Shown: positions 49,450 through 63,257 of the stretch, one piece after another
Numbering within the stretch: the first letter of the stretch is position 1
Layout: each line of letters opens with the position of its first letter
IMG/VR virus record: IMGVR_UViG_3300032217_000845
Location: 1-64,000 of that record
Length of the DNA: 64,000 nt
Direction: 5' to 3' (one strand)
Source: a virus
The notes under the pieces: model-generated
Seen by the model: only the letters and a program-made list of their open reading frames with translations
The model's database searches: none
What the model was told of the DNA's origin: nothing
Translations under genes and position numbers: made by a program

Positions 49450-49767
49450 ATGAGACACATCGAGATTCACGTAATCGAAACCGAGTTAGACGCGGCAAGC
49501 GCAGTTGCATGCGGCCTGCTCTCTGACCCGTTCTTCGTAACCGTCTGTGCTGACTGCGGAGATGACGTTGGGGGACTCGACATCTTTGAACCGTACTGCC
49601 TAGTACTCGATGAGGTAACCGAGTGGTACCTGTGTACTTACTGCGCTGAACCTGTAACCGACCCAGACACTGTCGACTCCGACTACTACTCACTCGTTGA
49701 GGAAGAACTAACCGACCCTGACGAAGATGACGAAGATGACGGACGCTTTGTAGTTATAGATGACTAG
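49450..49767 (+). CDS. acidic zinc-finger-like protein
   Basis: CADC...CTYC; D/E-rich tail. Confidence 0.6.
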   Translation: MRHIEIHVIETELDAASAVACGLLSDPFFVTVCADCGDDVGGLDIFEPYCLVLDEVTEWYLCTYCAEPVTDPDTVDSDYYSLVEEELTDPDEDDEDDGRFVVIDD

Positions 49768-49822
49768 TTGTAAATCCCGTTTCGTAGCAGTGCCTTCCAC
49801 CGACTTCTAACTACTAATAAGA

Positions 49823-49851
49823 AGTATAGCACTCGACCGACATAAAGTCAA
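49823..49851 (-). promoter_or_regulatory. leftward sigma-A-type promoter
   Basis: Minus strand reads TTGACT-17 nt-TATACT with an extended TG. Confidence 0.65.
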
Positions 49852-50015
49852 ACACTTAGATACTTCTAAATAGAGAAGACATACTTTTAGAAAAAACGAA
49901 TACAAGCGACTAAGACCCTCTACGGAAAAAACGAATACAACTAAACTCATCAGCCGACACTCTGATTAGTAATAAGAAGTTGCTAAATGTCCGAGGGTGT
50001 GCTACTCTCTCTGGT

Positions 50016-50579
50016 ATGGAAATCACAACACTAACTAGACACGAATACACCACAGAACGAGTTGCCAAGCACACAGGCAGTTTGGAGGGTTGCTATGACG
50101 ACTTCCACGTTGGCGAAGTCAATGGCGTAGTTATCTACATAGGAACTGACTACGCTGGCACGATTGACCCTGCCAAGAACCCTTTGAGGTTCTCGGACTA
50201 CTCTGCGAAAGAGATGAAAGGCTTTCAGGAGTATTGGGGACATTGGGACGCTATCAACAAGCACCTCCACAACAAGACCACAAAACCGGGCTGGGGTCTT
50301 ATCAACCTAGTTGTCTATGGCTTTGTAAATGGCATACAGATTGGCGACCCTACAAATGTTCTACACGCTGTTCCAACAGGTTTCACGCCAGAGGCAAACA
50401 GGATAGACGCAGGGGAACTTGTCTGGGTAGAGGTAGAACAGGCTGTAATGGATTGGCTCAACTATCCAGATAGCCAGCCAACACTTCACGCAATAGCAGA
50501 GGCAAAGCGTAAGGAGGCTGTTGCTCTATTCACAGCGAGCCTAGACCTAATCCAGCCTCTCGCCACGCTGATAAAATAA
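50016..50579 (+). CDS. hypothetical early protein (leaderless)
   Basis: TTGCTA-17-TACTCT promoter ends 7 nt before the ATG at 50016. Confidence 0.7.
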   Translation: MEITTLTRHEYTTERVAKHTGSLEGCYDDFHVGEVNGVVIYIGTDYAGTIDPAKNPLRFSDYSAKEMKGFQEYWGHWDAINKHLHNKTTKPGWGLINLVVYGFVNGIQIGDPTNVLHAVPTGFTPEANRIDAGELVWVEVEQAVMDWLNYPDSQPTLHAIAEAKRKEAVALFTASLDLIQPLATLIK

Positions 50580-50674
50580 ATCAGAAATGAACTTGACAAC
50601 TTCGCATTAGTAGTGTAAAGTCGTCAGTAGTTGGAAACCTCCAACGCACAAACTCCGAAAGGACGGAAATACAA

Positions 50675-51154
50675 ATGGCAACAGGAACTATCGTTGGCAA
50701 GGGACTTTACTTAGAGTTCGTTCCAACAGACACCACCACTCCTAGCACTAAGGTAATGCAGGTGCTATTCACACCAGAGGGTATTGACGAGGCTGGCAAC
50801 TATGTTCAGTTCTCAATGCACTCTCGCACTATCTCTGAAACTTCACCTCGCAAACAATGGAGGATTACGAAGTGTGGCACAGAGAATAAAGAGTTGCTTT
50901 CACTTGGCTCTGTTGGACAGGTCAAGGCACAGGAACTCGCTGTCCAAATGGTAGAACGCTTTGAGAAATCACTAGAACGAGCAGTTATGCCAGACAAGAC
51001 AAATCCAACTTGGAAACTTCGGTCTAAGCCAATCGCTGTGGAAATCACTTCCTTTGACTTGTCTGAAATCACAGATTGGAAAACCCCTCTGCCAGCACTA
51101 CGCAGAATACAGAAATGTCGTGTAGCACTTGACTTCCCCGAGAAGTTAGTGTAA
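50675..51154 (+). CDS. hypothetical early protein
   Basis: Own promoter (TTGACA-17-TAAAGT) and GAAAGGACGG RBS. Confidence 0.75.
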   Translation: MATGTIVGKGLYLEFVPTDTTTPSTKVMQVLFTPEGIDEAGNYVQFSMHSRTISETSPRKQWRITKCGTENKELLSLGSVGQVKAQELAVQMVERFEKSLERAVMPDKTNPTWKLRSKPIAVEITSFDLSEITDWKTPLPALRRIQKCRVALDFPEKLV

Positions 51155-51189
51155 GGTCAATACTACAAACCGATAAGGACGGAAAACAA

Positions 51190-52212
51190 ATGACTACAAT
51201 CGCACCAAGCACCACTCCAACTACCGAGTTGGACGACATCTATCCAGACCTTGCTAAACTTGTGTATGGAGTTGCTATTCAGACACTAGACGCTGGCTCT
51301 GTGCCAGCAGGTCTTGATAGCCTACTTCCTACTGCTGGTCGTGCTAACCTCCGAGCAAAGGGAGGCGACACCACCACTAGCAAGAAAGCAAAGGTAGAAC
51401 TATTGGCAGAACCAATCACAGGTGCTACCACCTACACCAGACCAAATGGTCGTGAGTATTATGCTCGTCAATGGGGCGAACACTCTGACGTGGAAGTCTG
51501 TCGCAAGGCTCGGGATAACAAGCAGTTTATCCTACTATACGGAAATCCTGGCTGTGGTAAGACAGCACTCGTTGAGGCTAGTTTCGGGGACGACCTATAC
51601 ACCATTATTGGAACAGGCGATACAGAGGTTGGCGACTTCCTCGGTGGCTATGTCCAAACTCCAAGTGGAGGCTTTGAGTGGATTGACGGAGTTCTAACCC
51701 GAGCAGTTGAGGAGGGCAAAGTCCTCCTGATTGACGAGGTTGGTCTGATTGACCCGAAAGTTATGTCGCTGGTCTATGGACTAATGGACGGCAGAGATGA
51801 ACTCGTCATTACCTCCAATCCAGAACGAGGCACTATCAAAGCCAAGCAGGGGTTCTATGTAATCTGTGCGACTAACCCTAACGCTGTTGGAGTTCGTCTA
51901 TCAGAGGCTCTGCTATCTCGCTGTGTTATTCAGGCTGAAATGACTACTGATTGGTCGCTTGCCAAGAAGTTAGGTGTGCCAGCCTCGGCTACCACGCTTG
52001 CTCAAAACCTGTCTAAGAAACAACTAGCAGGTGAAGTATCTTGGTCGCCACAGTTCCGAGAGTTGGAGGCGTTTAGGGACTTGTCCAAGACCTTTGGAAC
52101 TAAGTGGGCAGTTGCCAACCTAATCGCAACAGCACCCGAAATGGATAGACCTGTCGTGATAGATGTGGCTACCCGAGTATTCGGTGAGGATTGCCGACCA
52201 GCCAAGATTTAG
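51190..52212 (+). CDS. MoxR/CbbQ/CobS-like AAA+ ATPase
   Basis: GNPGCGKT, W.DG.L..A, LLIDE, ATNP, LSEALLSR. Confidence 0.9.
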   Translation: MTTIAPSTTPTTELDDIYPDLAKLVYGVAIQTLDAGSVPAGLDSLLPTAGRANLRAKGGDTTTSKKAKVELLAEPITGATTYTRPNGREYYARQWGEHSDVEVCRKARDNKQFILLYGNPGCGKTALVEASFGDDLYTIIGTGDTEVGDFLGGYVQTPSGGFEWIDGVLTRAVEEGKVLLIDEVGLIDPKVMSLVYGLMDGRDELVITSNPERGTIKAKQGFYVICATNPNAVGVRLSEALLSRCVIQAEMTTDWSLAKKLGVPASATTLAQNLSKKQLAGEVSWSPQFRELEAFRDLSKTFGTKWAVANLIATAPEMDRPVVIDVATRVFGEDCRPAKI

Positions 52213-52338
52213 CACTCCGTCCTGTGCTAATAGGGGGAGGTCAAAGAAGTTGCGAAATGGACTTGACTTCCCCCGACAACTCTGCTACTATCTTACTAGG
52301 TCAGAAACGCTGACCAGAAAATCAGGAAGGATTTTCTA

Positions 52339-54147
52339 ATGGGACACTATTCCAGACTAGCAACACGCACCAGCACCACGCCTCCTGCTTGGCTCAAAAC
52401 CTGCTCGCAGATTGGCACACTCGCTAACACTTGGGCTAATCGTGGCGACCTCGCTGTCTATGGTGGTGAGGACGCAGGTATGGGTGAGGCTCTCGCTTGC
52501 TTTATTCACAGCACAGCAGAGATTGAGGTCAATCTACCAATCGCTTTCGGTAAGGCAACCACGCCTGAAATGGTGGGCGACCTAACAGAACGCTACAACC
52601 AATACGAGTTCCCCGAGGCAACAGGCGTAATCCTCCACGAGGCGTTTCACGCTAGATACTCGGAGTGGAACTACGAACTTATGGACGCTGAAACTAAGAC
52701 AGAGCCAAAGGTTCGGGACGCTTTTATGTTGTTGGAGGAAAGTCGTATTGAGGGGCTGGCTGTCTATCACTTCCCCGAGAACGCATTATTCCTACGAGCC
52801 TCCTCAATGGGGCTGTCTTTCGCAGAGGCAGAAACCTCTATGGAAAAGATGTCTAAGACAGGTGCTTTCGCACACCTCGCAGGTCTGACCCTTGCCAGAG
52901 TTTCGGCAGGTGTCCTTGACGAGTTTGATGTCGCTGGTATCTACAACAGAGTTGCCGAGGTCTTGGGCGAGAAGTGCCTGAAAACTTTGGAGGCTATCTG
53001 GGTAGAGTTCCAGACACTAGACAACACGCTAAACGCTGACCTACTTCGTGGGATTGACCTTGCTCGTAAATGGATAGAGGCTATCAAGGAACGAGCAGAG
53101 GAACGAGGCGAACCAGCAGAACCAGAGTTCGGTGAGGGTATTCCTATTCCACAGGAACTAGCAGAGGCTCTGTCCGAGATTATGGAGGCTCTGGGTGAGG
53201 CTATGGAGGAAACCAAGTCTGCCACAGCAGAGGCTCTGGGTGAGCAACAGCAGGACGAGAACCTGAAAGAGGAAATCAAGGAACGCCAATCCAAAGCCAA
53301 TACCAAAGAGGAACGCAAGGCAGAGGCAGACAGGGTGTTCTCGCACAACTCCACTCTCGGTCAATCTGGTAGCAGTTCCCGATTGGAAAGCACTCGTCCC
53401 CCGAAAGGTGAGGAACGAGCAGGGGCAGTAAAGTTGGCACAGATGTTAGAGAAAGCCAAGTATGTAGAGAGGTCTGCCACAGAGATAGCAACCACTATTC
53501 CACAGGGTCGCCTACGCACTCGGGCTGTCGTCCAAAAGAAAGCGTTGGAGGCTAAGGGCATTAGGTCTGACCTCCCGACTTGGAGGGCTACCAAGCACAA
53601 GCACACCACAGACCCTATCTTGTCTATCGGTGTAATGGTAGATGTATCTGGCTCTATGGGTTCGGCTATGAACCCTATGGCGAGTATGGCTTGGATTTTA
53701 TCCGAGGCTGGTCGCAGAGTTCAGGCTAGAACTGCTATGGTCTATTATGGCTCGGGTGTCTTTCCAACTCTCAAAGTTGGACAGCACTTGGAGGAGGTCA
53801 AGGTCTGGACAGCACCAGACGGAACAGAGGAGTTTGGTCAGGCTTACAAAGCACTTGACGGAGTTCTCGGTCTGACTTATGCCGAGGGCGTGAAGTTGCT
53901 CGTAATCGTATCTGACGGACACTACCGACCAGACCAAGAGAAACAAGTGGTCAAGGCTCTCGCAGAGTGCGACAAGGCTGGCGTGGGAGTTCTCTGGATT
54001 ACACCTGCCGAGTGCCGAGGTGGAAACACCAGCCTCATTAGTGGGACAAATGCCACGCACCTAAACATTACGGACACAGCCTCAATCGCAACTGCTATCG
54101 GCAGGTCGGCAACCGAGGCTCTGACTAAGATTGGAGGGCGAGTGTAA
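52339..54147 (+). CDS. VWA-domain protein with an N-terminal HExxH domain (CobT-like partner)
   Basis: HEAFH, LEESRIE; MIDAS DVSGSM, T, VSDG. Confidence 0.88.
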   Translation: MGHYSRLATRTSTTPPAWLKTCSQIGTLANTWANRGDLAVYGGEDAGMGEALACFIHSTAEIEVNLPIAFGKATTPEMVGDLTERYNQYEFPEATGVILHEAFHARYSEWNYELMDAETKTEPKVRDAFMLLEESRIEGLAVYHFPENALFLRASSMGLSFAEAETSMEKMSKTGAFAHLAGLTLARVSAGVLDEFDVAGIYNRVAEVLGEKCLKTLEAIWVEFQTLDNTLNADLLRGIDLARKWIEAIKERAEERGEPAEPEFGEGIPIPQELAEALSEIMEALGEAMEETKSATAEALGEQQQDENLKEEIKERQSKANTKEERKAEADRVFSHNSTLGQSGSSSRLESTRPPKGEERAGAVKLAQMLEKAKYVERSATEIATTIPQGRLRTRAVVQKKALEAKGIRSDLPTWRATKHKHTTDPILSIGVMVDVSGSMGSAMNPMASMAWILSEAGRRVQARTAMVYYGSGVFPTLKVGQHLEEVKVWTAPDGTEEFGQAYKALDGVLGLTYAEGVKLLVIVSDGHYRPDQEKQVVKALAECDKAGVGVLWITPAECRGGNTSLISGTNATHLNITDTASIATAIGRSATEALTKIGGRV

Positions 54148-54237
54148 TCGGCTCGCCTCCACAAGAACCCGATAGGGATTGAGCAACCGAGGAGTTTCCG
54201 TCCCCTTTCACCTCAACTGCTCTCGCTATTGGTAGAG

Positions 54238-54273
54238 AACCCCTGACAACTTCCCCTTTGGTCAGGGGTTTTC
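54238..54273 (+). terminator. intrinsic terminator with a C/U-rich loop
   Basis: AACCCCTGAC / GTCAGGGGTT followed by TT. Confidence 0.75.
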
Positions 54274-54470
54274 GCTTACCCTGACCGACACACAATGTGT
54301 CCAGCAAAAGCATCTCTGCTGGAACTTCGTATCAACTAATCCGAAGTCAGCCTGAGCTGCCGAGATGGTCGCCTTGTATTCGTTTTTTCCAAACCGACAC
54401 GCCTCCTCGCCTACTTGACAACTTCGTATTAGTTATGGTAAGGTCGTAGTATCAACCGAAAGGGAAACAA

Positions 54471-54767
54471 ATGGACGACAGAGAAATAGCAACTAACGCA
54501 TTAGTCCTACTAGGGGCAACTGCCGAGGGCTGTGCCGAGAATGGATTGGCTAATCCAATCCTGTATCAAAGTTTGGAACTAGCAATAGAACTAGCAGAAC
54601 ACCTAGACGAACCTGACCTAGTAGTGCTACTCAAATCAGCGTTGATTGGAGTGGGCGAGGGGATTGAGGAAACTATGGCTATCGTCAAACAAATCAAATC
54701 GCAGTTTGACTTTATGAACACAAGCGAGTATAATCAGGACACGACACCTAACAAGGAGGACAACTAA
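54471..54767 (+). CDS. hypothetical protein
   Basis: Promoter and GAAAGGG RBS. Confidence 0.7.
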   Translation: MDDREIATNALVLLGATAEGCAENGLANPILYQSLELAIELAEHLDEPDLVVLLKSALIGVGEGIEETMAIVKQIKSQFDFMNTSEYNQDTTPNKEDN

Positions 54768-55663
54768 TGCCAAACTGGGTCTATACATCTATGGCAGTAT
54801 CAGGTAAGAAAGACGACCTGCTCGCCTTTGCTAAGAAAGCCAGCCAGCAACACGAAACTCTATGGCTCACCGAGAGGTGGAAACGCAACGAGGACGGCAC
54901 GAACACCGAAGTCCCCGAGGAGGAACGCAAGATTGAGAAAGAACTATCTCCACCAAGTCCTATCTCGTTCTGGAACTTCTTAGCACCAACAGAGGAGGAA
55001 CTGCCTTACTACTTTGGACACGCAACCAAGCCAGAGGACGAGGCTGACCCTGACGCAACTTCCGAGGAACGACTAGCAAAGGCTCTGTTGTTTGAGGGCT
55101 CGGGCTGGTATGATTGGAATGTTCGCAACTGGGGCTGTAAGTGGGACGCCAATGACGAGGAACTGGACACCGACCTAGACACGCTACAACCACACGATAG
55201 CCTGTCGTATCGTTTCTCTACGGCTTGGTCTCCTGCCGAGGGCGTGTTTCGTGCTATGACCGAACAGCACCCCGAACTATCCTTTGAGTTCTCTTGCGAG
55301 GAGGAACAGGGCTGGGGCGTGGTCTATGACGGCGAGAACGGCTCGCTATCTGTGGCTGACGAGTGGGAGATACCGAACAGCCACGCTGACTATGTGGCGA
55401 GGGATAACGAGGACGGCTGTGCCTGTGCGAGAGATGACGACCAAGAGGATTGGTATTCCGATTGTCCTAGACCGAGTGTTGAGGTTGTCGTAGTGGTAGA
55501 ACACCGATACAAGATTACAGCACCGACCATAGCCGAGGCTTGGGAACTTGCTCTCAACGGCAACCCTGCTGACCTGACGGCAAGCCTGATAGAGGGCGAG
55601 ACTACTGCCTTTGTGATAGGCGAGGACGGCAAGCGTATCTACCCGACCTTAGAGAACGCATAA
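54767..55663 (+). CDS. YubB/DUF1281-like ferredoxin-fold protein
   Basis: MPNW, WYDWNVRNWGCKWDA, FSTAWSP, HPELSF...EE.G. Confidence 0.75.
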   Translation: MPNWVYTSMAVSGKKDDLLAFAKKASQQHETLWLTERWKRNEDGTNTEVPEEERKIEKELSPPSPISFWNFLAPTEEELPYYFGHATKPEDEADPDATSEERLAKALLFEGSGWYDWNVRNWGCKWDANDEELDTDLDTLQPHDSLSYRFSTAWSPAEGVFRAMTEQHPELSFEFSCEEEQGWGVVYDGENGSLSVADEWEIPNSHADYVARDNEDGCACARDDDQEDWYSDCPRPSVEVVVVVEHRYKITAPTIAEAWELALNGNPADLTASLIEGETTAFVIGEDGKRIYPTLENA

Positions 55664-55707
55664 CGGCTCGCCTTGACTAATCAGACGGATTGGTGTAGGG
55701 TAGCCTT

Positions 55708-55941
55708 ATGAGCAAGAACGCAACCGAGGAGTTTGTAGATGTCCTGATTACTTGGGACACCGAGCAAACCGATACAGATGAAGTCGTAGTAGCAATCGGG
55801 GACGGGTCGGTAGTCTATGACGAGGACTTCGCCTTTGACCCCCGAGTGTATTTCTACTTTGATAACCGAGAGCAGTTTGAGTTAGCAAAGACCAAAATAA
55901 TAGAGGACATAAACTTCCAAATCCTACGGGTTTTGGACTAG
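55708..55941 (+). CDS. acidic hypothetical protein (leaderless)
   Basis: TTGACT-17-TAGGGT just upstream; D..VYFYF motif. Confidence 0.65.
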   Translation: MSKNATEEFVDVLITWDTEQTDTDEVVVAIGDGSVVYDEDFAFDPRVYFYFDNREQFELAKTKIIEDINFQILRVLD

Positions 55942-55958
55942 CAAGAAACGGAGTAAAA

Positions 55959-56192
55959 GTGCCAAAGACAAAGCAGATAGATACTTGGGAGTGGTTCATA
56001 GAACGCTACCAAGAACTCGGCTACAAATCACTAAATCAGTTTGCTATCGCAGAGGGCTTTCAGAAGTCCAGCCTTAGCAGATACTTCCACAAGCAAAGAC
56101 AAATGCCAGCAGATACCTTGGTGGCTGTTTGCCTTGCTCTCAAAGTCAAGCCAGAGGATTTGCTGGTTGCTCTGAACGAGTGGAAACGCTAG
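55959..56192 (+). CDS. XRE/Cro-like HTH protein
   Basis: SLNQFA...FQKSSLSRYF...L..VC.AL.V.PEDL. Confidence 0.8.
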   Translation: MPKTKQIDTWEWFIERYQELGYKSLNQFAIAEGFQKSSLSRYFHKQRQMPADTLVAVCLALKVKPEDLLVALNEWKR

Positions 56193-56428
56193 ACCAACCC
56201 CGATAGGGAAACACCTGAGCAAGTGTTCTAAACTGCTCGCCACAATCTGCCTCCGTTTGTATTCGTTTTTTCCTCGGACTTGCGAAATGTCGGAGGCTGT
56301 GATACACTCGCTAATGTGAAGTTCTCCGATAGGACGACACACCAGAGCAAATGAACTTGACAAAGTTTCGTAAGTCTGGTAAGTTCTAAATGTAAAGCCC
56401 AATGATACTAAGTAGATAAGGAAATCAA

Positions 56429-56806
56429 ATGGCAACTACAAAGAGCACCACCACTAAGGGACAGGTTATCCTGACCACCACCAATGAGCCAGAGGTTCGC
56501 CTCTCGGCAAAGGGACAGAAAGCAGTTCGGGAACTCCGAGACGCACACAACTTGGAAAAGCAAGTTGCCGAAATCGTCAAGGCTAGCAGAGATGTTATCC
56601 TCAACGAACTAGGGAACGAGCAGACCAAGTTTGGAACAGACGCAAAGGGTAAGCGTCTGGTCAAAATCCACCTCATTACCCCGAAAGACCCAACACGCTA
56701 CAACACAGCAGAGTTGGTAGCGTTCCTCGCAAAGACACAGCCAGAGGTTCTGGAAATGTTTAGAGCAGAGGACGCAAAGGCGACCACCCGAGTTCTTACT
56801 CTCTAA
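56429..56806 (+). CDS. hypothetical protein
   Basis: Tandem promoters and TAAGGA RBS; followed by a terminator. Confidence 0.7.
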   Translation: MATTKSTTTKGQVILTTTNEPEVRLSAKGQKAVRELRDAHNLEKQVAEIVKASRDVILNELGNEQTKFGTDAKGKRLVKIHLITPKDPTRYNTAELVAFLAKTQPEVLEMFRAEDAKATTRVLTL

Positions 56807-56825
56807 CGAGAGTAAGCCAGAAAAG

Positions 56826-56866
56826 CCCCGACAGACAGTTATCCCCTTTCACTCTGTCGGGGTTTT
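56826..56866 (+). terminator. intrinsic terminator with a C/U-rich loop
   Basis: CCCCGACAGA / TCTGTCGGGG followed by TTTT. Confidence 0.8.
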
Positions 56867-56986
56867 CGCCTATCTGGTTTTGGCTCGTTTGTATTCGTTT
56901 TTTCCTCGCATCTAAAATCTTCGGGTTTGACAACGACACACTAATACGAAGTTGTAAATGTCAGAGGTTTATGGTAGAGTGCTGGT

Positions 56987-57436
56987 ATGGACAAAAGACA
57001 AACTAACAACTGCGAAATCTGTGGCGAGTTATTTACTGACCTACCACTTGACGAGGAGTGTTCTTGCTCAAAGAGAAAGGACGCTGCTTTCTATGTCAAT
57101 AGTGATGGTGGCGAGTTCGTGTGGAACCCTAAACTCAATGAGGACGAGGGAGAGAAACACGAATACTATGTTGTGCGTAATGGGGAAATGCGTATCAAGG
57201 CGACAGATGGCAAGGGTAGAGATTATGTCCTACGCTACACAGAGGACTTAGAGGCTTTCGGTATCACGACAGACGAGCAACTTTACGAGGCAAGCACAGA
57301 CGAGGAAAACTTCTATTGGGATATGAACTCTTGGTTTGAGGTCTGCTGTGATTTTGACGAGGCTTACTCTGATGTCTTTGACGACCTTGACAGAGCCATA
57401 GCAGAGGCAGTAAGATTACGAAAGGAAGGACACTAA
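56987..57436 (+). CDS. acidic hypothetical protein (leaderless)
   Basis: TTGTAA-17-TAGAGT ends 6 nt before the ATG. Confidence 0.7.
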   Translation: MDKRQTNNCEICGELFTDLPLDEECSCSKRKDAAFYVNSDGGEFVWNPKLNEDEGEKHEYYVVRNGEMRIKATDGKGRDYVLRYTEDLEAFGITTDEQLYEASTDEENFYWDMNSWFEVCCDFDEAYSDVFDDLDRAIAEAVRLRKEGH

Positions 57437-57723
57437 TGAAACTACGAATAGCGTTTGGCGACACTCTTAGAGAGATACGACAAGACCAACACAGAACTCT
57501 TAGAGAGGTGTCTGTAAAGTCTGGCGTGGCACTTGGCTATGTATCGGAAGTAGAGAGAGGGCAGAAAGAGGCTTCATCGGAAGTCTTGGAAAGCCTGACC
57601 AACACGCTTGGCGTGTCTATGGCTGACTTCCTAATCCTTACAGCGTTGCGTCTAGGTGCTGTCGCTGTCCCCGACACAGCAGAAACCCTACTTGACGAAT
57701 ACACCGACCTTGTGGTAAGATAA
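57436..57723 (+). CDS. clgR: ClgR-like XRE transcriptional regulator
   Basis: GDTLR..R..Q.RTLREVS....VALGY.SEVERGQKEASSE.L, the actinobacterial ClgR signature. Confidence 0.8.
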   Translation: MKLRIAFGDTLREIRQDQHRTLREVSVKSGVALGYVSEVERGQKEASSEVLESLTNTLGVSMADFLILTALRLGAVAVPDTAETLLDEYTDLVVR

Positions 57724-57742
57724 GGGAAAGGAAAGGACGACA

Positions 57743-57952
57743 ATGAGCAGACAAGTTTATTTTGTAATCGGTGTTGATTTAGACGACAAAACAGTTTTCA
57801 TAGATGACGGCACATTTACGGCTCGCTTTGGTAAAGACGAGCAGGTATGGGACACCGATAAACAAGAGTGGCGAGAATACGAGGGCGAGGAACAAGAGGA
57901 ATACGACCTCGCCTTAGAAATCCTCAACACCGAGAAGTTGAGGGACGACTAA
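57743..57952 (+). CDS. acidic hypothetical protein
   Basis: Strong RBS; 69 aa. Confidence 0.7.
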   Translation: MSRQVYFVIGVDLDDKTVFIDDGTFTARFGKDEQVWDTDKQEWREYEGEEQEEYDLALEILNTEKLRDD

Positions 57953-58257
57953 TGGAATACGACCTATACTCACCCGAGAGGAACTTCTCGGCTATCCCTG
58001 ACCTGAAACTTGTAAAGATTACAGGGGACGACAGGGACAGAAGTATTCACTTCCTCTGGCGAGGCGATAGACAATGGCTCGCTATGAGTAAGGATAATCC
58101 TTACGAGGATAACTGCTGGCTTGTAGTCAAGACCGACTACACAGACGAGTTTCAGGAGTTTCTTGACGAGGAACTCTCTGGCTACGATAGCCTAGAAAGC
58201 ACCTTTGAGTTATCGGACATTATTCCAACCGAATACTCAATAGAGTTTGATAACTAA
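57952..58257 (+). CDS. acidic hypothetical protein
   Basis: TAATG coupling; start at MEYDL. Confidence 0.65.
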   Translation: MEYDLYSPERNFSAIPDLKLVKITGDDRDRSIHFLWRGDRQWLAMSKDNPYEDNCWLVVKTDYTDEFQEFLDEELSGYDSLESTFELSDIIPTEYSIEFDN

Positions 58258-58266
58258 ATAGACTTG

Positions 58267-58525
58267 CTTGATACACGCTGAACCATTTTGGTGCGTGGGC
58301 AGAACTAACTACCTGCCTATTATCAAGGAAACCGAGTGAAATCTCGCTAAACTACGGACAACACGCTCGGTGGTGAATACGCCTCTGGTGGAAGTAGCAG
58401 GTCGGGTCTAGAACTGACCAAGAGTTTATTCTCAATGCGAAATAGCACAATGACGCAAAGTAGCCCCTTGTGTGTTCGTCCGAACCTAAGACCAGATAGC
58501 CATAACGCTTTCTGGTCTTTCTCTT
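58267..58525 (+). ncRNA. candidate large structured RNA followed by a terminator
   Basis: Nested helices CTTGATA/TATCAAG, CACGC/GCGTG, GGCAG/CTGCC, CGGACAACAC/GTGTT-C-GTCCG, GGTCGG/CTGACC; terminator AAGACCAGA/TCTGGTCTT. Confidence 0.6.
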
Positions 58526-58673
58526 TTTGGTGAGGTGTTGTATTCGTTTTTTCTCTACGCCTACTGTGGAAAGAGGGAACTTCGCATTAGTGTTTCGTTC
58601 TTGACAAATGTCAGAGGAGTATGCTAGTATCACTATGTAGTCAGAAAGTCTGACACAGAAAGGGTCTAGTCCT

Positions 58674-59159
58674 ATGGGATTGGATATGTATTTAGAGGCT
58701 CGCAAGTATGTAAGTGGATACTCTCACAGACCTATTGACGAGCAGAACGAGTATGAGGAAGTGCTGAACTCGGTAGGTATGTCAAGAACAGACCTAACAG
58801 CAGAGGCAAGTCCTTTCGCTAATGTAAGTATAAATGTTGCTTATTGGCGTAAGGCTAATCAGATACACGCTTGGTTCATCAACAACTACGCCAAAGATGG
58901 TGTAGATGATTGTAGCCCTGTCCATCTTGGCGAGAGATACCACCTTAGTATTCTAAGAAACCTCTGCCAAGAGGTCATTGACGACCACAGCAAAGCAGAG
59001 GAACTTCTGCCTGTTTCATCTGGCTTCTTCTTTGGGTCAGACGAGTATGGCGAATACTACTTCCAAGACTTAGAGAACACCATTGAGCAGTTGGATAAGT
59101 TGCTCTCTAATCCTAAGTTTGCTGAGGGCTGGGACTTCATCTACCAAGCAAGTTGGTAG
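58674..59159 (+). CDS. conserved phage hypothetical protein
   Basis: MGLDMYL, YWRKANQIHAWF, LLP..SGFFFG...Y.EYY, YQASW. Confidence 0.8.
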   Translation: MGLDMYLEARKYVSGYSHRPIDEQNEYEEVLNSVGMSRTDLTAEASPFANVSINVAYWRKANQIHAWFINNYAKDGVDDCSPVHLGERYHLSILRNLCQEVIDDHSKAEELLPVSSGFFFGSDEYGEYYFQDLENTIEQLDKLLSNPKFAEGWDFIYQASW

Positions 59160-59336
59160 CCACAAACTAAGCACGACCCCTTAGCACACGCTAGGGGGTT
59201 TTGCTTTACCTGTTTGCTGGCGAGGTGTATTCGTTTTTTCAGACGACACGGCACGGCACGGGAACTTGACTAAACAAATGAACTATGATACTATGTAGAT
59301 ACAACGGGCGAACAGGAAGTAGCCTGAAAGGGATAA

Positions 59337-59708
59337 ATGGAAACTACAACTATTACGGGTCTGGTAGCAACCACACCACGACACCTAGTATCAGCAGACG
59401 GCTTGCCGATTACTTCTTTCCGATTGGCGAGCAGTAATCGCAGGTTTGACCGAGCCACTATGGAGTGGGTGGACGGCGAGACTAATTGGTATACGATTAC
59501 CTCTTTCCGCACACTCGCAATCAACACCGCTACATCTATCAGCAAGGGCGACCGCATTGTTGTATCAGGCACACTTCGTATTCGTGATTGGGACAACGGC
59601 GAACGGGTAGGAACTAGCGTTGAGTTAGAGGCGAGCAACATTGGACACGACTTAGCGTGGGGGACTACCACCTTTGTCCGAACCGTTCATAAAGCAGACA
59701 CCGAATAA
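59337..59708 (+). CDS. ssb: single-stranded DNA-binding protein, actinobacterial type, without acidic tail
   Basis: TITGLVAT.P, FRLAS..RRFDR...WVDG.TNWYTI..FR.LA, KGDR.VV.G.LR.RDW, IGHDL.WGT. Confidence 0.9.
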   Translation: METTTITGLVATTPRHLVSADGLPITSFRLASSNRRFDRATMEWVDGETNWYTITSFRTLAINTATSISKGDRIVVSGTLRIRDWDNGERVGTSVELEASNIGHDLAWGTTTFVRTVHKADTE

Positions 59709-59885
59709 CCGAACGGCTCGCCTAACGGCGTGGGATTGGCAAGCCTAACGGCTTGCCTTTCTGCGTTTGACGGCAAGCCTATTGGCGAGCAGACGGCAAG
59801 CCTAACGGGTGTGTCAGGCTTGACAAAGACCGACCGCTATGGTAGGCTAGCAGAGCAGACAACCCTGCCAACCGATAGGACAGAA

Positions 59886-60128
59886 ATGACAACCGCACTA
59901 CCCGAACTAACCGAGATGACCACCAAGACCGACCAACCGATAGTCGCACTCTACAACCGAGACGACAGACTAACGGGTATCGTAAATGGCTGGAAAGTCG
60001 CTGACGGAGTAATGGAAATGGACGAGAGTATCAAGCGAGCAGTAGCGACTAGCGAACTGACTATGGCTGAACTCGTTGAGATTGACCAGAGTATCGCCAG
60101 ACTTCGCAACTTGCGTGGAACTCTCTAA
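59886..60128 (+). CDS. hypothetical protein
   Basis: TTGACA-17-TAGGCT promoter at 59820 and AGGA RBS place the start at 59886. Confidence 0.65.
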   Translation: MTTALPELTEMTTKTDQPIVALYNRDDRLTGIVNGWKVADGVMEMDESIKRAVATSELTMAELVEIDQSIARLRNLRGTL

Positions 60129-60304
60129 ACAAAACTAGCCAAGTGGAAACACTTGGTTTTAGTTTTAGCCCGAAGTGTATTCGTTTTTTCCCTGCGTAAA
60201 TTTTGCTGAAAATAAAATCCTAAATGAGTTTGATTTTGTCGGGAGTATGTGGTAGGGTATAAATGTAGTCAGAAATACTGATTATCCAATCACTCTGAAA
60301 GGGT

Positions 60305-60667
60305 GTGGTAAAAGTGGAAACACTAAACCAAGTAGTAATAACAAAGTCGGTCAATGGCGTAGAAGTTGCCACGCTATCTGAACTAGGGATTTTGCTAGGC
60401 GTAAAGCCAAGCACTATCTTTGTCTGGATAGATAAATACAAGAACTTCCCTAAGCCTGTTGCCGAAATCAAAGGTGCTGGTCGTAATGGGCGTTCTCGCT
60501 TGTTCCCGATTGACGCTGTTCAGGTGTGGCACAAGAAACACATTACGACACGCAAGGCTAACGAATGGACAGGTATTCTTTCCAAGTTGAGCCAAATCTC
60601 AAAGGCTAGTCCTGCCACTTACAAAATCATTCTGGAAATGATTGACGAAGCGTCAGGTCGCAAGTAG
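60305..60667 (+). CDS. AlpA/excisionase-like HTH protein
   Basis: LSELG.LLGV.PSTI.VW....NFPKP...LF....V..W. Confidence 0.75.
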   Translation: MVKVETLNQVVITKSVNGVEVATLSELGILLGVKPSTIFVWIDKYKNFPKPVAEIKGAGRNGRSRLFPIDAVQVWHKKHITTRKANEWTGILSKLSQISKASPATYKIILEMIDEASGRK

Positions 60668-60847
60668 CCACACGACACTAGACTTACCCCCTGCTAATCA
60701 CAGGGGGTTTTCTGGTTTTGGGACACGACTAGTTTGTATTCGTTTTTTCCATCACGACACACTTCGCACTAACACGCTTGACTTTATTTAGAAACTATGC
60801 GATAATAGAGATGTTGTCGGGAAAGGCTCGGCACGGAAAGGGATAAA

Positions 60848-61171
60848 GTGGGCGACAGGTCTGCGATTATCATTGAGAGTGAAAGGTTCATCACGCCTAT
60901 CACGCTATACGGACACTGGTCGGGCAGGAACAACCTTGCTGCTGTGGCTAGTGTGTTGGAAACTACGGACAGGGTTGGCGACCCGTCTTATCTCACGGCT
61001 CAACTGTTTTACAAGTTTGCTGTGGAACTTGGCAAGTATGACGGAAATCTGTCTTTCGGTATTGACGCTTTCGGTGGGACACCACAGGAAATAAATGCGA
61101 CTATGGACACCGATACGATTGTCGTAAATGCCGATAATGGAACTTGGCGTTGGGCGATACCCGTAGAGTAA
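60848..61171 (+). CDS. conserved phage hypothetical protein
   Basis: MGDRS.I, LY.HW.G, R.GDPSYL. Confidence 0.75.
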   Translation: MGDRSAIIIESERFITPITLYGHWSGRNNLAAVASVLETTDRVGDPSYLTAQLFYKFAVELGKYDGNLSFGIDAFGGTPQEINATMDTDTIVVNADNGTWRWAIPVE

Positions 61172-61187
61172 TCTTTATACGAACGCA

Positions 61188-61224
61188 GGTTAGCACTCAC
61201 GCAACACGAGTGCTAACCTCTTTT
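61188..61224 (+). terminator. intrinsic terminator
   Basis: AGGTTAGCACTC / GAGTGCTAACCT followed by a T-rich tail. Confidence 0.8.
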
Positions 61225-61384
61225 CGTTTTTGCTTAGGTAGAAGTTGTATTCGTTTTTTCCGGCAGCGACAGATAACTTCGCATTAGCGACACGAAGTTA
61301 GACAGACTTGCGTTTGTCGCTAGTGTGTGATACAATGAAGTTATTACACAGGCGAGAAACCTAAGTATCGCTGAAAGGGAAACA

Positions 61385-61807
61385 ATGACAGAAATAGAAA
61401 CAGAGATACAAACTCTCACGGCAGAGTTGGATAGCGATTGTTCTTGCGAGGACTATGACGAGGACACAGACACAAGCAAGCCTAGTGAAAGTTGCTTCGG
61501 AGATTGTTGGACAGAAAGTAAAGACGACTTTACTGAACACTTGCTCAAACCTTACCTTGTTGTAAAGGGTTGGAAAATGGACACGCCTATCAAGGTTGCT
61601 TCATCACGAATGACTTGGCAAGGCATTAGAGGTTGGGCATACACTACGCCTGAACGCTTGGTTGATACGCTTACTCTCAATGGAGATTTTCGCCTAGTGT
61701 TTGAGTTTGACGGAAACGACCTAACTGCTATTCGCTATTCTCACGACGAGCCAATGGGAACAGGTAAGTTTGAGATTGAGTTGTCTGACGAAAGCGACGA
61801 CGACTAA
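61385..61807 (+). CDS. conserved phage hypothetical protein
   Basis: Promoter and GAAAGGG RBS; M.W.GI.G, YSHDEPMG. Confidence 0.75.
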   Translation: MTEIETEIQTLTAELDSDCSCEDYDEDTDTSKPSESCFGDCWTESKDDFTEHLLKPYLVVKGWKMDTPIKVASSRMTWQGIRGWAYTTPERLVDTLTLNGDFRLVFEFDGNDLTAIRYSHDEPMGTGKFEIELSDESDDD

Positions 61808-62018
61808 ACACGACACGAGAAAGGTCGCTGACTTCGGTTGGCGACTTTTTTTGTATCTGCCGATTACGGAGTTGTATTCGTTTTTTCCTCACCCCTGCCG
61901 AACACGACTTCCCTGTTATCTATTTGTTATAAAACTTTCTACACTTCGGGAATAAATGAACTTGACTTTTAGTTATACTCTATGTAATAATGTAGTTATG
62001 GACAACGAAAGGGAAACA

Positions 62019-62546
62019 ATGAACAACTACGAGAAGTCATACAGCAACGAGCCGTTTCTAAATGGTGCGTTAGACATACCTATTTGGAGTGAAATACTGC
62101 CGAACTTTTGGCTAGGTGGAACTGCCGATAACGATTGTGTTGGCGATAAGCACTTTCAGTTTGATAGGCAGGACATCTCTATCAAGCCTAGAAACTTTGA
62201 TAGCGTTTATACTTTCTACGCTTACGCTAACCCTGTTGATTGGCTAGTTAGAGAGTTTAGGTTTGGCTACTTTGATAGTGGCGAAACTGACTTTGACTTA
62301 GACGAGTTTAGGCGTATTGCTCTAATGGCTCACGCTGATTGGAAGCGTGGCGAGAGAGTGCTAATGCGTTGCCAAGCAGGTCTAAACAGGTCAAGCCTAT
62401 TCTTTGCCTTAGTGCTTATGATTGACGGCTACACGGCACAAGAAGCGATTGACTTGATACGAGAGAAGCGACACGATAAGTGTCTATTCAATCCTCACTT
62501 CGTAGCGTGGTTGCTCAAACAAGACTTAGAGTTTTGGCGAGCATAA
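62019..62546 (+). CDS. dual-specificity/tyrosine phosphatase family protein
   Basis: SEILPNFWLGG, CX5R loop CQAGLNRS, AIDLIREKR, FNP.F. Confidence 0.88.
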   Translation: MNNYEKSYSNEPFLNGALDIPIWSEILPNFWLGGTADNDCVGDKHFQFDRQDISIKPRNFDSVYTFYAYANPVDWLVREFRFGYFDSGETDFDLDEFRRIALMAHADWKRGERVLMRCQAGLNRSSLFFALVLMIDGYTAQEAIDLIREKRHDKCLFNPHFVAWLLKQDLEFWRA

Positions 62547-62738
62547 ACTCACGCTAAGAAAACCTAACCCCCGTGAAAACTCACGGGGGATTTTCTTAGT
62601 GCGAAGTTGCGAAGGTGTATTCGTTTTTTCCTTACTCTACAAACACGGTGGAAGTATTACTTGCGTAAATCCATAAGGTATGGTAAGATAGTTAGGTAGT
62701 CAGAAAGTCTGGCACAATAGAAATCCTGAAAGGGAACA

Positions 62739-63062
62739 ATGCTAAAAATGGAAATAAATGGGACAGAAGTAGTTAGTCCTATGGAAATCGCAAGTCGCTT
62801 CGGAGTTAGTTTGCCTGCTGTTTATGTCTGGGCAAGGCGTTCGGATTTTCCGACACCACTACTAACGACAGGTGGCTCACAACGACCACGCCACATTTAC
62901 TCGGCTACCGAGATTGAGGCTTGGGTCGCTGAACACCTTGACGCTAAGGGTGGCAGGGGCAAGGCTCATCTAATCGGGCGTAGAGTTCTAGGGCTGGCAA
63001 CATCTAACCCTGAAATCTACAAGCAGATTGAGCAGTTGCTAGAAAGCACCGACACCGAATAA
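62739..63062 (+). CDS. AlpA/excisionase-like HTH protein (paralog of 60305)
   Basis: EIASRFGVS..AV.VW.RR.DFP.P...Y...EI.AW. Confidence 0.78.
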   Translation: MLKMEINGTEVVSPMEIASRFGVSLPAVYVWARRSDFPTPLLTTGGSQRPRHIYSATEIEAWVAEHLDAKGGRGKAHLIGRRVLGLATSNPEIYKQIEQLLESTDTE

Positions 63063-63257
63063 GGCTCTGAAAGAAACACGCTTACCCGAAAGGGTAGGCG
63101 TTTTCTTTTTTTGCTAATGCGAAGTTAGCCGAGTGTATTCGTTTTTTCCTTACACGCTGTCTAGCACGACACGCTAATAGTATGAACTTGCTTTTGTCGG
63201 TAGTATTTGGTATAATAGTTATGTAGTCAGAAAGACTGATTACAGAAAGGGAAACAA

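Follow-up and report, generated by a model that had tools for sequence, protein, structure and literature searches.

The locus and its hairpins

The window analysed in this study, a 64,000-nucleotide stretch of DNA, belongs to an uncultured 126-kb freshwater (lake) phage (exact genome 125,776 bp), the nearest named relative of which is DSL-LC01, a predicted actinophage. The locus of interest contains, on the + strand, an ORF of 159 aa (50675..51154), the gene of an AAA_5 (MoxR/CobS-like) ATPase of 340 aa (51190..52212; Pfam PF07728, E 9e-18; phrog_16448) and that of a VWA (CobT/CoxE-like) protein of 602 aa (52339..54147). The match of the latter to Pfam VWA_CoxE (E 2.5e-4) lies below the curated cut-off, and its homologue in DSL-LC01 is annotated as 'cobalamin biosynthesis protein'. 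The 159-aa ORF falls into neither a Pfam nor a PHROG family; it is kept upstream of the ATPase gene in relatives, with tblastn matches in most loci. Promoter-like sites were placed by a consensus scan ahead of the 159-aa gene (P1, TTGACA-17-TAAAGT, 50593..50621, + strand, 10/12 matches) and ahead of the VWA gene (P3, TTGACT-17-TACTAT, 52263..52291, + strand), and a further one within the 3' end of the 159-aa gene (P2, TTGACT-17-TAAGGT, 51129..51157, + strand) was read from the sequence and is missing from the scan's list; the number of such sites that the scan returned in this region is not above that in shuffled sequences.

The 159-aa gene and the ATPase gene share one extended ribosome binding site (RBS) word, AAGGACGGAAA, located on the + strand at 50659..50669 (target 1, 5 nt before the ATG at 50675) and at 51175..51185 (target 2), respectively. 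The word AGGACGGA has two copies in the 64-kb window, which are also the only two in the whole genome (50660 and 51176), each 7 nt before an ATG. The Shine-Dalgarno (SD) sequence of the VWA gene (AGGAAG) lies in the loop of an 8-bp hairpin (52316..52337, + strand), 1 nt before the ATG.

At the ATPase stop lies hairpin A (52209..52230, + strand), composed of a 7-bp stem (TTAGCAC/GTGCTAA) and an 8-nt loop, TCCGTCCT (52216-52223), which complements targets 1 and 2; the stop codon TAG (52210-52212) is within its 5' arm, and a 51-nt context has a folding energy of -19.3 kcal/mol (z -3.05). The only genomic copy of TCCGTCCT, the complement of AGGACGGA, is this loop. The preliminary description of this DNA had called the loop the exact complement of a word found in both RBSs of the operon (50660, 51176), and all four hairpins and all the words that it quoted are indeed in place. 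Directly 3' of hairpin A is a 12-bp hairpin (GGGGGAGGTCAA / TTGACTTCCCCC; 52233..52274, + strand; -21.6 kcal/mol), which has no U-run after it and the 3' arm of which forms the -35 element of the VWA promoter; equivalent inverted repeats with changed arms are found in loci L001, L002, L005, L013 and L018 of the comparison set described below.

Behind the VWA gene, hairpin B (54169..54232, + strand) has a long imperfect stem and an 18-nt loop, AGTTTCCGTCCCCTTTCA (54193-54210). Within this loop, TTTCCGTCC (54195) complements targets 1 and 2, its other genomic copy (89989) being intragenic and outside any loop, and CCCTTTC is complementary to GAAAGGG; the complementarity to both the operon RBSs and GAAAGGG that had been described earlier is thereby confirmed. 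The predicted duplexes with target 1 amount to -15.1 kcal/mol for the ATPase loop and -18.0 kcal/mol for the VWA 3' loop. The VWA 3' loop of the window has no more than a 5-nt match to the VWA gene's own RBS, unlike in most relatives, where the post-VWA loop in the homologous place matches the VWA gene's own RBS.

The signal within a single genome

Taken alone, the signal from this genome is weak and without significance, since chance pairing of 8-mers is to be expected and RBSs are matched almost equally well by shuffled CU-rich loops. Between 50550 and 54300 (3,751 nt) there are 167 inverted pairs of at least 8 nt, two of which are perfect over 12 nt. The observed best RBS match was reached by shuffled CU-rich loops with P = 0.085 for the ATPase loop and P = 0.05 for the VWA hairpin, and with P = 0.02, 0.005, 0.66 and 0.45 for the remaining loops. 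A wobble test for selection on the + strand RNA failed, as reverse-complement duplexes were predicted to be as good as or better than those of the actual strands (-14.42 vs -13.92; -18.22 vs -16.15), so that an RNA-level rather than a DNA-level reading rests on the hairpin context and the location of the words on the SD. A closed loop that pairs with a distant strand forms a pseudoknot, which is beyond the scoring of folding tools, and full-length pairing of an 8-nt loop would entail strain.

Covariation of loops and RBSs in related phages

It is the comparison with relatives that makes the loop-RBS matching more than chance, since there the loops complement their own RBSs better, on average, than those of other loci. 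IMG/VR holds 119 stretches related to the ATPase; 80 loci with a complete gene (79 from IMG/VR and the window) were reduced to 55 non-redundant ones, forming 29 clusters at 80% ATPase identity. For the VWA gene, the 110 nt after the stop were compared with the gene's own RBS in 49 loci (28 when one per cluster was taken).

The longest exact complement between the ATPase 3' element and the RBS of its own ATPase or upstream gene averaged 6.84 nt over the 55 loci, vs 5.20 nt for the RBSs of other loci, and complements of at least 8 nt were seen in 21/55 own pairs vs 145/2970 other pairs; the own mean was reached by 0/5000 permutations, and the orientation controls gave 4.36 (identity), 4.51 (reverse) and 5.45 (complement). 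The corresponding values for the VWA element were 8.37 vs 5.97 (n=49), with at least 8 nt in 33/49 own and 313/2352 other pairs, 0/5000 permutations and controls of 5.43-6.06. The parallel-orientation control, which has equal composition, was lower in both cases (5.45 for the ATPase and 5.86 for the VWA element). With one locus per cluster the result persisted (ATPase 7.24 vs 5.32, 29 loci; VWA 8.11 vs 5.94, n=28; 0/5000 permutations each). Covariation of loop and RBS, which had been proposed earlier as a check, is thus borne out.

The complementary words themselves are highly diverse: 25 distinct ones of at least 7 nt for the ATPase and 28 for the VWA element, such as GGACGGA/TCCGTCC, GAACGGAA/TTCCGTTC, ACAGGGAGA/TCTCCCTGT, GGAGACC/GGTCTCC and GAAAGGAACGGAA/TTCCGTTCCTTTC; cores shorter than 7 nt remain in 21/55 and 10/49 loci, respectively. 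Core nucleotides are unpaired in the MFE fold more often (66% for the ATPase, 82% for the VWA element) than those of the whole scanned stretch (38% and 44%). On the RBS side, the core ends at a median of 7 nt before the start codon, and within 10 nt of it in 32/34 (ATPase) and 33/39 (VWA) cases, i.e. on the SD. In 40 of 45 loci the VWA loop is a better match to its own RBS than to that of the next gene; in two the matches are equal, and in three the next gene's is the better one. The RBSs of the upstream gene and the ATPase gene also share their word within a phage (mean longest shared run 8.10, vs 5.64 between phages; 0/3000 permutations reach the within-phage mean), and the VWA RBS does not share this private word in the within-phage comparison of the relatives.

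Perfect stems of at least 7 bp were found at the ATPase stop in 40/55 loci, vs 7.2% of shuffles and only 3/51 at the stop of the upstream gene; the other 15/55 loci have none of this length at the ATPase stop. The hairpin encloses the stop codon in 39/40 loci; 23 of them have it in the 5' arm and 16 in the loop. When the 55 ATPase-stop windows were aligned with MAFFT, RNAalifold returned zero consensus pairs, because register and loop length vary among loci. Rfam scans matched the hairpins to no family, c4 included, and the hairpins are absent from the cultured, distant relatives Pumpernickel and Forza. In L032, where the ATPase and VWA genes follow each other without a spacer and the ATPase hairpin is missing, the post-VWA hairpin matches the ATPase RBS over 14 nt. 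In relatives that have ACCTAC in all early leaders, GTAGGT occurs in a terminator loop solely behind the ATPase gene, with one more GTAGGT per locus outside terminator loops. The covariation supports the view that selection maintains the ATPase and VWA loops as anti-RBS elements.

CCCCTTT loops of terminators in the cassette region

The 54-78 kb region is a cassette array, in which modules of a terminator hairpin and an early promoter lie between small early genes; it appears shuffled and has a repeated 15-mer. Most of its terminators have GNRA-type tetraloops. Two terminators in the window carry long loops with CCCCTTT, just as the preliminary description had it: terminator C (54235..54273, + strand), with a 13-bp stem, a 13-nt loop AACTTCCCCTTTG (54248-54260) and then TTTTCGC, and terminator D (56822..56866, + strand, z -5.23), with a 14-bp stem, a 17-nt loop CAGTTATCCCCTTTCAC (56836-56852) and the same TTTTCGC. 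Terminator C forms its best predicted duplex with the next gene's RBS at 54471 (-14.4 kcal/mol), and its loop matches the leader of the gene at 63789 over 10 nt. For terminator D, the loop fails to match the RBS of its own gene (5 nt); it matches over 12 nt that of a 50-aa gene (genome position 69852).

All five + strand copies of CCCCTTT in the genome are in hairpin loops. Four of them are in loops of perfect stems of at least 9 bp, a class that makes up 0.58% of the genome (binomial P = 5.5e-9), and the fifth is in the imperfect VWA hairpin. GAAAGGG occurs on the + strand 11 times in the window and 29 times in the genome. Elsewhere in the genome, depletion of anti-SD-like words on the sense strand is mild (for example TCCTTT, 8 seen vs 14.1 expected; CCTTTC, 13 vs 14.4). 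Terminator loops with CCCCUUUC lie at 54248 and 56836, and outside the window at 70959 and 77837; two of the four do not track their own RBS. A role of such loops in trans on GAAAGGG cassette RBSs is possible, because L007 retains the 56836 loop while differing in its stem and in the RBS of the gene itself.

Discussion

The reading that we favour, and hold to be somewhat more probable than its rivals taken together, is that the 3' loop of each mRNA pairs with the SD of the same mRNA and brakes its translation, in the manner of icaR. There would be two adjoining units, the 159-aa gene with the AAA ATPase and the VWA partner, each closed by a hairpin that exposes, in an open loop rich in pyrimidines, the Watson-Crick mirror of the unit's extended SD word, with loop and RBS presumably on the same mRNA. 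Once the 3' end is transcribed, the loop would pair with the SD and hinder 30S binding, and this pairing would probably also speed decay. The protein yield per mRNA could in this way be capped, keeping the ATPase, the upstream gene with the same RBS word and the VWA partner at set levels. In the present genome the loops at 52216 and 54195 both address AAGGACGGAAA of the RBSs at 50659 and 51175, which would fit a read-through transcript across all three genes. The private words, the preference of the VWA loop for its own RBS, and the GTAGGT terminator loop found solely behind the ATPase gene point to a control by the ATPase and VWA hairpins that is gene-specific and self-directed rather than a global silencing. 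The earlier suggestion of a general shutdown of early translation, or of a silencing of host mRNAs, is not supported for these two hairpins, whose loops follow the private words of their own genes (25 and 28).

That suggestion takes the 3' fragments, hairpin plus terminator, to be stable anti-SD RNAs that act in trans, titrating early cassette or host RBSs and so turning early translation off. We consider it unlikely as an account of the locus, in spite of several observations in line with it. The location of all five CCCCTTT in hairpin loops and of most of the 29 GAAAGGG at cassette RBSs would suit it, as would the matches of at least 7 nt that the loops at 54190, 56836, 70959 and 77837 each have to 23-25 of 42 predicted RBSs; at 77837, the loop read as its reverse complement is identical to the consensus cassette RBS, GAAAGGGAAACAA, apart from two additional C. 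The fixed loop and free stem at 56836 (L007) recall the pattern described for cuckoo RNAs (PMC4615179), C-rich loops of Actinobacteria are reported to work without chaperones (6C sRNA, PMC6486639), and LhrC is described as pairing through its terminator loop (PMC4132741). However, the ATPase and VWA loops follow their own gene's private word and not a shared or host-like SD, the ACCTAC-leader relatives have many leadered genes and the GTAGGT terminator loop solely behind the ATPase, the cassette terminators mostly have GNRA-type tetraloops, and two of the four CCCCTTT-type loops do no better against the RBS set than same-composition shuffles (P 0.66, 0.45).

An equally improbable alternative is that the 5' and 3' ends close upon each other in a positive or timing role rather than in simple repression. 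The pairing might protect the 5' region against RNase J/E/Y, as in hbs; it might keep the full-length mRNA latent until 3' trimming, as in hok mRNA; or it might bring terminating ribosomes next to the start site. In its favour, the stop codon lies inside the hairpin in 39/40 loci, so that terminating ribosomes must open it. In one clade (L017, L022, L029 and L049), the complementary word (GTAGGTTG / CAACCTAC) precedes the SD and lies close to the predicted 5' end, and SD masking is therefore not the sole conserved feature. The fbi/tac pairing of hok is one precedent for such closure, and the 5'/3'-UTR interaction of hbs, described as governing RNase access (PMC5737220), is another. Against this stands the core end at most 10 nt from the start codon, i.e. 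on the SD, in 32/34 and 33/39 cases, and pairing with the SD should hinder 30S binding, as in icaR and with anti-SD 8-mers.

That there is no RNA interaction at all, the matches being due to chance between CU-rich loops and purine-rich RBSs or to inverted repeats acting as DNA (protein sites, relics of cassette recombination), is very improbable: the weak single-genome statistics, the wobble test that does not favour + strand RNA, and the shuffled cassette array with its repeated 15-mer would agree with it, but own matches exceed those to other loci, with 0/5000 permutations reaching the own mean, also with one locus per cluster, the parallel-orientation control of equal composition is lower (5.45, 5.86), the words lie on the SD and in the loops of hairpins with stems that vary from phage to phage, no loop serves as the RBS of a minus-strand gene, and with more than 25 different words per element a DNA-binding protein would need more than 25 changes of specificity.

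Several known systems bear comparison with the self-directed braking favoured here. RsaE and RNAIII are small RNAs whose C/U-rich hairpin loops pair with G-rich SD regions. The hok mRNA of plasmid R1 forms a fold-back pairing (fbi/tac), the c4 antisense RNA of phages P1/P7 is an upstream processed RNA, and in T7 gene 1.2 a pairing of the 3' end with the RBS is relieved by RNase III. In these last three, a 3' or co-transcribed element pairs with the region where translation of its own transcript starts and thereby governs the timing of translation. The phage locus resembles them in having such an element complementary to the start region of what is probably its own transcript; it is homologous to none of them, and hok and T7 gene 1.2 rely on RNA processing. 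With 6C (PMC6486639), LhrC (PMC4132741) and the cuckoo/alpha-r14 RNAs, described as having CCUCCUCCC loops that are fixed while stems vary (PMC4615179), the locus shares C/U-rich unpaired loops facing G-rich SD regions; those RNAs are free-standing and act in trans on many targets, whereas the ATPase and VWA loops are gene-private and lie at mRNA 3' ends. In hbs of B. subtilis, too, two ends of one mRNA pair, but this pairing, described as controlling RNase Y access and stabilising the mRNA (PMC5737220), is not aimed at the SD.

In B. subtilis, anti-SD-like 8-mers hundreds of nucleotides downstream are reported to pair with the RBS, to inhibit initiation and to favour decay, and to be selected against in genes (Gill et al. 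2025, preprint, PMC12697547). The phage words appear similar in being pyrimidine-rich, RBS-complementary and far downstream, but are retained and change along with the RBS. In icaR of Staphylococcus aureus, a single UCCCCUG motif in a long 3' UTR is described as pairing with the mRNA's own SD and hindering the initiation complex, the duplex being an RNase III substrate (PMC3868564). The phage loci seem alike in their C-rich 3' motif complementary to the SD region of the same mRNA; unlike icaR, their 3' part is short, the motif sits in a hairpin loop, which at the ATPase encloses the stop codon, and a single loop serves two RBSs that have their word in common. For icaR the support is experimental; here it consists of covariation in about 50 phages. 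Pairing of a 3' motif with the mRNA's own SD is thus known from icaR, and these phages would present a variant of it, in which gene-private hairpin loops co-evolve with the RBS.

Results

Genomic setting and relatives of the phage

The sequence comes from a single contig of 125,776 bp (46% G+C), of which the window is the first 64 kb; genes lie on the + strand from ~50 kb rightwards. Parts of the window are contained in 20 of the 24 sequencing runs listed, which are mostly freshwater metagenomes and include six RNA libraries with small shares. A megablast comparison of positions 50400-57200 with GenBank phages found no match, and relatives were found through a protein-guided scan of IMG/VR with the AAA ATPase. 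With 67% identity, the closest match of this protein is in the Actinomycetia phage DSL-LC01, known from a lake metagenome, the host of which is predicted to be actinobacterial by hostG and iPHoP (PMC10611076), followed by Microbacterium and Gordonia phages. In the cultured relatives Pumpernickel and Forza, the module is compact and lacks 3' hairpins. The contig carries small gene cassettes from 54 to 78 kb, and each of these combines a GAAAGGG ribosome-binding site (RBS) with a TTGACA-type promoter and a repeated 15-mer. The 15-mer, GTATTCGTTTTTTCC, has 25 copies on the + strand and 6 on the - strand at genome positions 54376-76668 (54376-63135 in the window), upstream of early promoters.

Loops complementary to ribosome-binding sites in the window

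The preliminary description had pointed to 3' hairpins whose loops are antisense to RBSs of the phage itself, and its coordinates and words all proved correct on re-checking. Hairpin A, at 52209-52230 on the + strand, has the stem TTAGCAC/GTGCTAA with the ATPase stop codon within its 5' arm, and its 8-nt loop TCCGTCCT, present once in the genome, is complementary to AGGACGGA. The latter has only two genomic copies, both inside the identical word AAGGACGGAAA, which precedes the upstream gene encoding a 159-aa protein (ATG at 50675) as well as the ATPase gene (ATG at 51190). Hairpin B, 3' of the VWA gene at 54169-54232 on the + strand, is imperfect and 64 nt long, and its 18-nt loop contains TTTCCGTCC and CCCTTTC. 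A pyrimidine-rich 3' motif complementary to the Shine-Dalgarno (SD) sequence of its own gene or operon, as in icaR, is present in both cases, over 8 nt for TCCGTCCT/AGGACGGA and 9 nt for TTTCCGTCC/GGACGGAAA. Terminators C (54235-54273, + strand; 13-nt loop AACTTCCCCTTTG) and D (56822-56866, + strand; 17-nt loop with CCCCTTTC) each have the G+C-rich stem and U-run of an intrinsic terminator and are followed by TTTTCGC; no U-run follows hairpin A or the hairpin at 52233-52274, neither of which qualifies as such a terminator. All five genomic copies of CCCCTTT on the + strand lie in hairpin loops, four of them within loops of perfect stems of at least 9 bp; such loops account for 0.58% of the genome (P = 5.5e-9).

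Several further structures were noted around these elements. The hairpin or palindrome at 52233-52274, which adjoins hairpin A, has 12 bp (GGGGGAGGTCAA ... TTGACTTCCCCC), and its 3' arm forms the -35 element of the VWA promoter; it may act as a U-less terminator, as an operator or in both capacities. An inverted repeat around TTGAC is also seen in the related loci L001, L002, L005, L013 and L018, where the arms differ and a GTTGCGAAATGGAC-like loop word is conserved. An 8-bp hairpin at 52316-52337, 1 nt upstream of the ATG, displays the VWA SD sequence (AGGAAG) in its 6-nt loop, and since the loop of terminator C holds CTTCC, a 5-bp loop-loop kiss between the two is conceivable. Finally, a perfect 12-nt inverted repeat connects the ATPase coding sequence at 51701-51712 (GAGCAGTTGAGG) with the 3' arm of hairpin B at 54211-54222; about 0.4 perfect pairs of this length are expected in the stretch by a rough estimate, and the repeat could reflect chance or an alternative pairing.

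Inverted pairs of at least 8 nt number 167 in the 3.75 kb surrounding the operon, two of them perfect 12-mers, and shuffled C/U-rich loops of matched composition come close to the real loops in matching the 42 purine-rich RBSs (shuffled-loop P = 0.085 for the loop of hairpin A, 0.05 for that of hairpin B, and 0.02, 0.005, 0.66 and 0.45 for the remaining loops). A gene-agnostic test, in which strong hairpin loops were scored for reverse-complement matches of at least 8 nt to RBS-like windows across the locus, gave 73/481 versus 54/433, 49/434 and 47/493 for the reverse, complement and same-sense controls, respectively, and was replaced by own-gene tests because it was too noisy. Depletion of anti-SD-like words from the sense strand was mild or none, and is suggestive at most. 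Counts from a promoter/terminator consensus scan, the terminator rule of which (loops of 3-8 nt) is blind to long-loop terminators, were not above those of shuffles. By itself, the window displays unusual CU-rich loops rather than proven pairing.

Loops and ribosome-binding sites covary across relatives

The ATPase protein led to 119 related IMG/VR stretches, the best 80 of which were kept. Together with the window this gave 81 loci, including 80 with a complete ATPase gene, 55 that are non-redundant and 29 clusters at 80% ATPase identity. A perfect stem of at least 7 bp is found at the ATPase stop in 40/55 loci, compared with 7.2% of shuffles and 3/51 loci at the stop of the upstream gene; the stop codon lies in the 5' arm of the hairpin in 23 loci and in the loop in 16. 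These stems vary between loci in sequence and register, which explains why RNAalifold, run on the 55 ATPase-stop windows aligned with MAFFT, predicted 0 pairs, and per-sequence stem counts were used in place of alignment-based folding.

The ATPase hairpin loops are on average 74% pyrimidine. Covariation of loop and RBS in related phages had been suggested as a check on the pairing, and for both elements own pairs surpass those between loci, with the own mean reached in 0/5000 permutations. Between the ATPase loop and the RBS of the ATPase or upstream gene of the same locus, the longest exact complement averages 6.84 nt, versus 5.20 nt with the RBSs of other loci (n = 55); it reaches at least 8 nt in 21/55 own pairs versus 145/2970 others. 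The corresponding means are 4.36 nt for the same-sense control, 4.51 nt for the reversed one and 5.45 nt for the parallel complement. The 110 nt past the VWA stop, compared with VWA's own RBS, give 8.37 versus 5.97 nt (n = 49; controls 5.43-6.06), with at least 8 nt in 33/49 own pairs and a longest match of 14 nt. The result is unchanged with one locus per cluster (29 clusters).

Loop/RBS matches in the relatives span 7-14 nt, and the distinct matched words of at least 7 nt, 25 for ATPase and 28 for VWA, vary from clade to clade and take in idiosyncratic letters beside the SD core. Examples, each mirrored in a loop, are GGACGGA, GGACGA, GAACGGAA, GGACAGG, GGAGACC, ACAGGGAGA, TGACGGAAGG and TTTTGGAAAGG. 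Complementarity is therefore kept through changes on both sides, another icaR-type feature (55 and 49 loci). Of the matched letters, 66% (ATPase) and 82% (VWA) are unpaired in predicted folds, versus a background of 38% and 44%, and the RBS-side match ends at a median of 7 nt before the start codon, hence on the SD. The complementarity, the placement in loop and on SD, and the gene-by-gene covariation are properties of the sequences themselves.

A proposed device that probably belongs to the ATPase/VWA module

The RBSs of the upstream and ATPase genes carry a private word in common within a phage (8.10 versus 5.64 between phages, 0/3000 permutations), whereas the VWA RBS has no excess likeness to the ATPase RBS (5.82 in its own phage, 5.70 in other phages, 824/3000). 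The VWA loop fits its own RBS better than that of the next downstream gene in 40/45 loci, the downstream starts being heuristic. In locus L032, which lacks a spacer between the ATPase and VWA genes, there is no ATPase hairpin and the post-VWA hairpin matches the ATPase RBS over 14 nt. In clades with ACCTAC in all early leaders, GTAGGT occurs in a terminator loop only behind the ATPase; one more GTAGGT is found per 11-13-kb locus, outside terminator loops. In the independently annotated DSL-LC01, only the VWA hairpin loop clearly matches its RBS (9 nt, read by eye); for the ATPase terminator loop the match to the leader is weak, at ~6 nt, and most other terminators are short-looped. Taken together, these patterns indicate that the device belongs to the ATPase/VWA module and not to every gene. 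VWA departs from the rule in the window, where its 3' loop fits the word shared by the ATPase and upstream genes (9 nt; predicted duplexes of -18.0 and -15.1 kcal/mol) and matches its own RBS over just 5 nt; this RBS is instead enclosed in the loop of a small local hairpin.

Proposed mechanism and alternatives

Promoter-like sites lie upstream, and as no U-run terminator separates the ATPase and VWA genes, a three-gene read-through RNA with two RBS copies and two mirror loops is plausible. Contigs from RNA libraries extend over portions of all three genes and across the ATPase-VWA spacer, at 52078-52341 and 52167-52317, and are at most a weak hint; they show neither ends, strand, level nor a single transcript, many come from relatives at 90-95% likeness, and a DNA origin is possible. 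We infer that the partners pair as RNA on the same mRNA, which would mask the SD once the 3' end exists. By analogy with icaR and the B. subtilis 8-mers, this masking would lower initiation and probably stability too. In icaR, pairing of a 3' motif with its own SD has been demonstrated to lower initiation (PMC3868564), and in B. subtilis anti-SD-like 8-mers hundreds of nt downstream have been shown to lower both initiation and stability (PMC12697547). In Actinobacteria, C-rich loops such as that of the 6C sRNA pair without chaperones (PMC6486639). Because the stop codon lies inside the ATPase hairpin, terminating ribosomes must open it; it may be speculated that the pairing senses ribosome traffic.

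A live alternative to such masking is a stabilising or timing role of the hbs or hok kind; it applies especially to the clade in which the match lies upstream of the SD.

It had also been suggested that 3'-UTR-derived anti-SD RNAs act in trans on early phage or host mRNAs. Loops of the CCCCUUUC type, with CCCC(C)UUUC, occur in terminators C and D and in the genome hairpins 70950-70982 and 77826-77863. The latter two match the GAAAGGG of their own genes over 7 nt (read by eye), as they would any cassette RBS; the loop at 77837 mirrors the consensus cassette RBS plus two extra C, and the best fit of the loop at 54248 is the RBS of the next gene. The loop of terminator D (56836-56852) matches its own RBS over 5 nt and, over 12 nt, the RBS region TGAAAGGGGATA (genome 69838-69849) of a gene that lies 13 kb downstream and encodes 50 aa (shuffled-loop P = 0.005), and it is retained in a relative whose stem and RBS differ. 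A fixed loop on a free stem is likewise described for the cuckoo RNA (PMC4615179), and given this pattern the CCCCUUUC loops might conceivably act in trans. Unpaired C/U-rich loops on stable hairpins, a feature of C-rich-loop sRNAs such as 6C, RsaE, LhrC and cuckoo, are present (8-18 nt), and four loops match at least 7 nt in 23-25 of the 42 RBSs (shuffled-loop P 0.005 to 0.66). Rfam 15 E-value scans of 49500-58000 and genome 64001-84000 yielded no sRNA family that reached or approached its gathering score, and a single match, to a manA RNA elsewhere in the genome, exceeded the threshold. This match (RF01745) is full-length on the + strand at genome 74520-74697, outside the window (10520-10697 of L084, the stretch 64001-84000), with 61.4 bits versus a gathering score of 55.2 (E 1e-13).

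As separate observations, in many cassette genes, at 58650-63790 in the window and up to ~76400 in the genome, the GAAAGGG RBS directly follows a small hairpin of the 5' leader whose loop consists of purines (GAAAG, AAAGG or AAAGGGA; e.g. 63222-63244, 63758-63776, 67011-67033 and 76358-76378), and such loops also complement those of the CCCCUUUC type. The cassette array has at its right end, beyond the window, a series of three consecutive hairpins at genome 77826-77936 (L084 13826-13936), in which loop 1 mirrors the consensus cassette RBS, loop 2 is ACTGCCCCCTAACTAA and the third hairpin is a U-run terminator; this is a candidate multi-loop RNA. Beyond it lies a GCTTCG-rich repetitive stretch (L084 14036-14115).

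A basis of the matches in DNA rather than RNA is unlikely, even though a duplexfold wobble/strand test did not favour the + strand and for VWA went against it. That the loops are RBSs of minus-strand genes is ruled out, as they have no plausible start or ORF.

Discussion

Pairing of a 3' element with its own SD is known in kind from icaR, the one well-studied bacterial case, which its authors call singular (PMC3868564), and 3'-end/RBS pairing has recently been shown to be physically easy in B. subtilis (PMC12697547). What is new here is the phage setting, the presentation in a loop, the hairpin enclosing a stop codon, the use of one loop for two genes with a shared private RBS word, and the support from broad natural covariation. 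A literature search, supplementary files being outside its scope, found no description of loop/RBS covariation in phages.

A bolder reading, which we put forward tentatively and as possible rather than probable, is that in this family of freshwater actinophages each unit of the ATPase/VWA module has a private SD-extension "address" that is mirrored in the loop of the hairpin terminating the same mRNA. The mRNAs would then close on themselves after transcription completes, and the pairing would serve as a chaperone-free, translation-sensing device metering how much protein each transcript yields; by the same principle, the CCCCUUUC terminator loops would act in trans on the GAAAGGG cassette genes.

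The principle appears here as a conserved, co-evolving device in dozens of phages, the natural covariation of which provides a ready-made mutational series. It offers a directly testable model of how phages whose hosts have no known RNA chaperones meter an ATPase/VWA pair, as well as compact parts for self-limiting expression, namely an 8-14-nt loop and a matched RBS word. For annotators, it means that "odd" terminators with large loops may be regulatory. If general, 3'-loop/RBS pairing would be a widespread and unrecognised layer of phage gene control.
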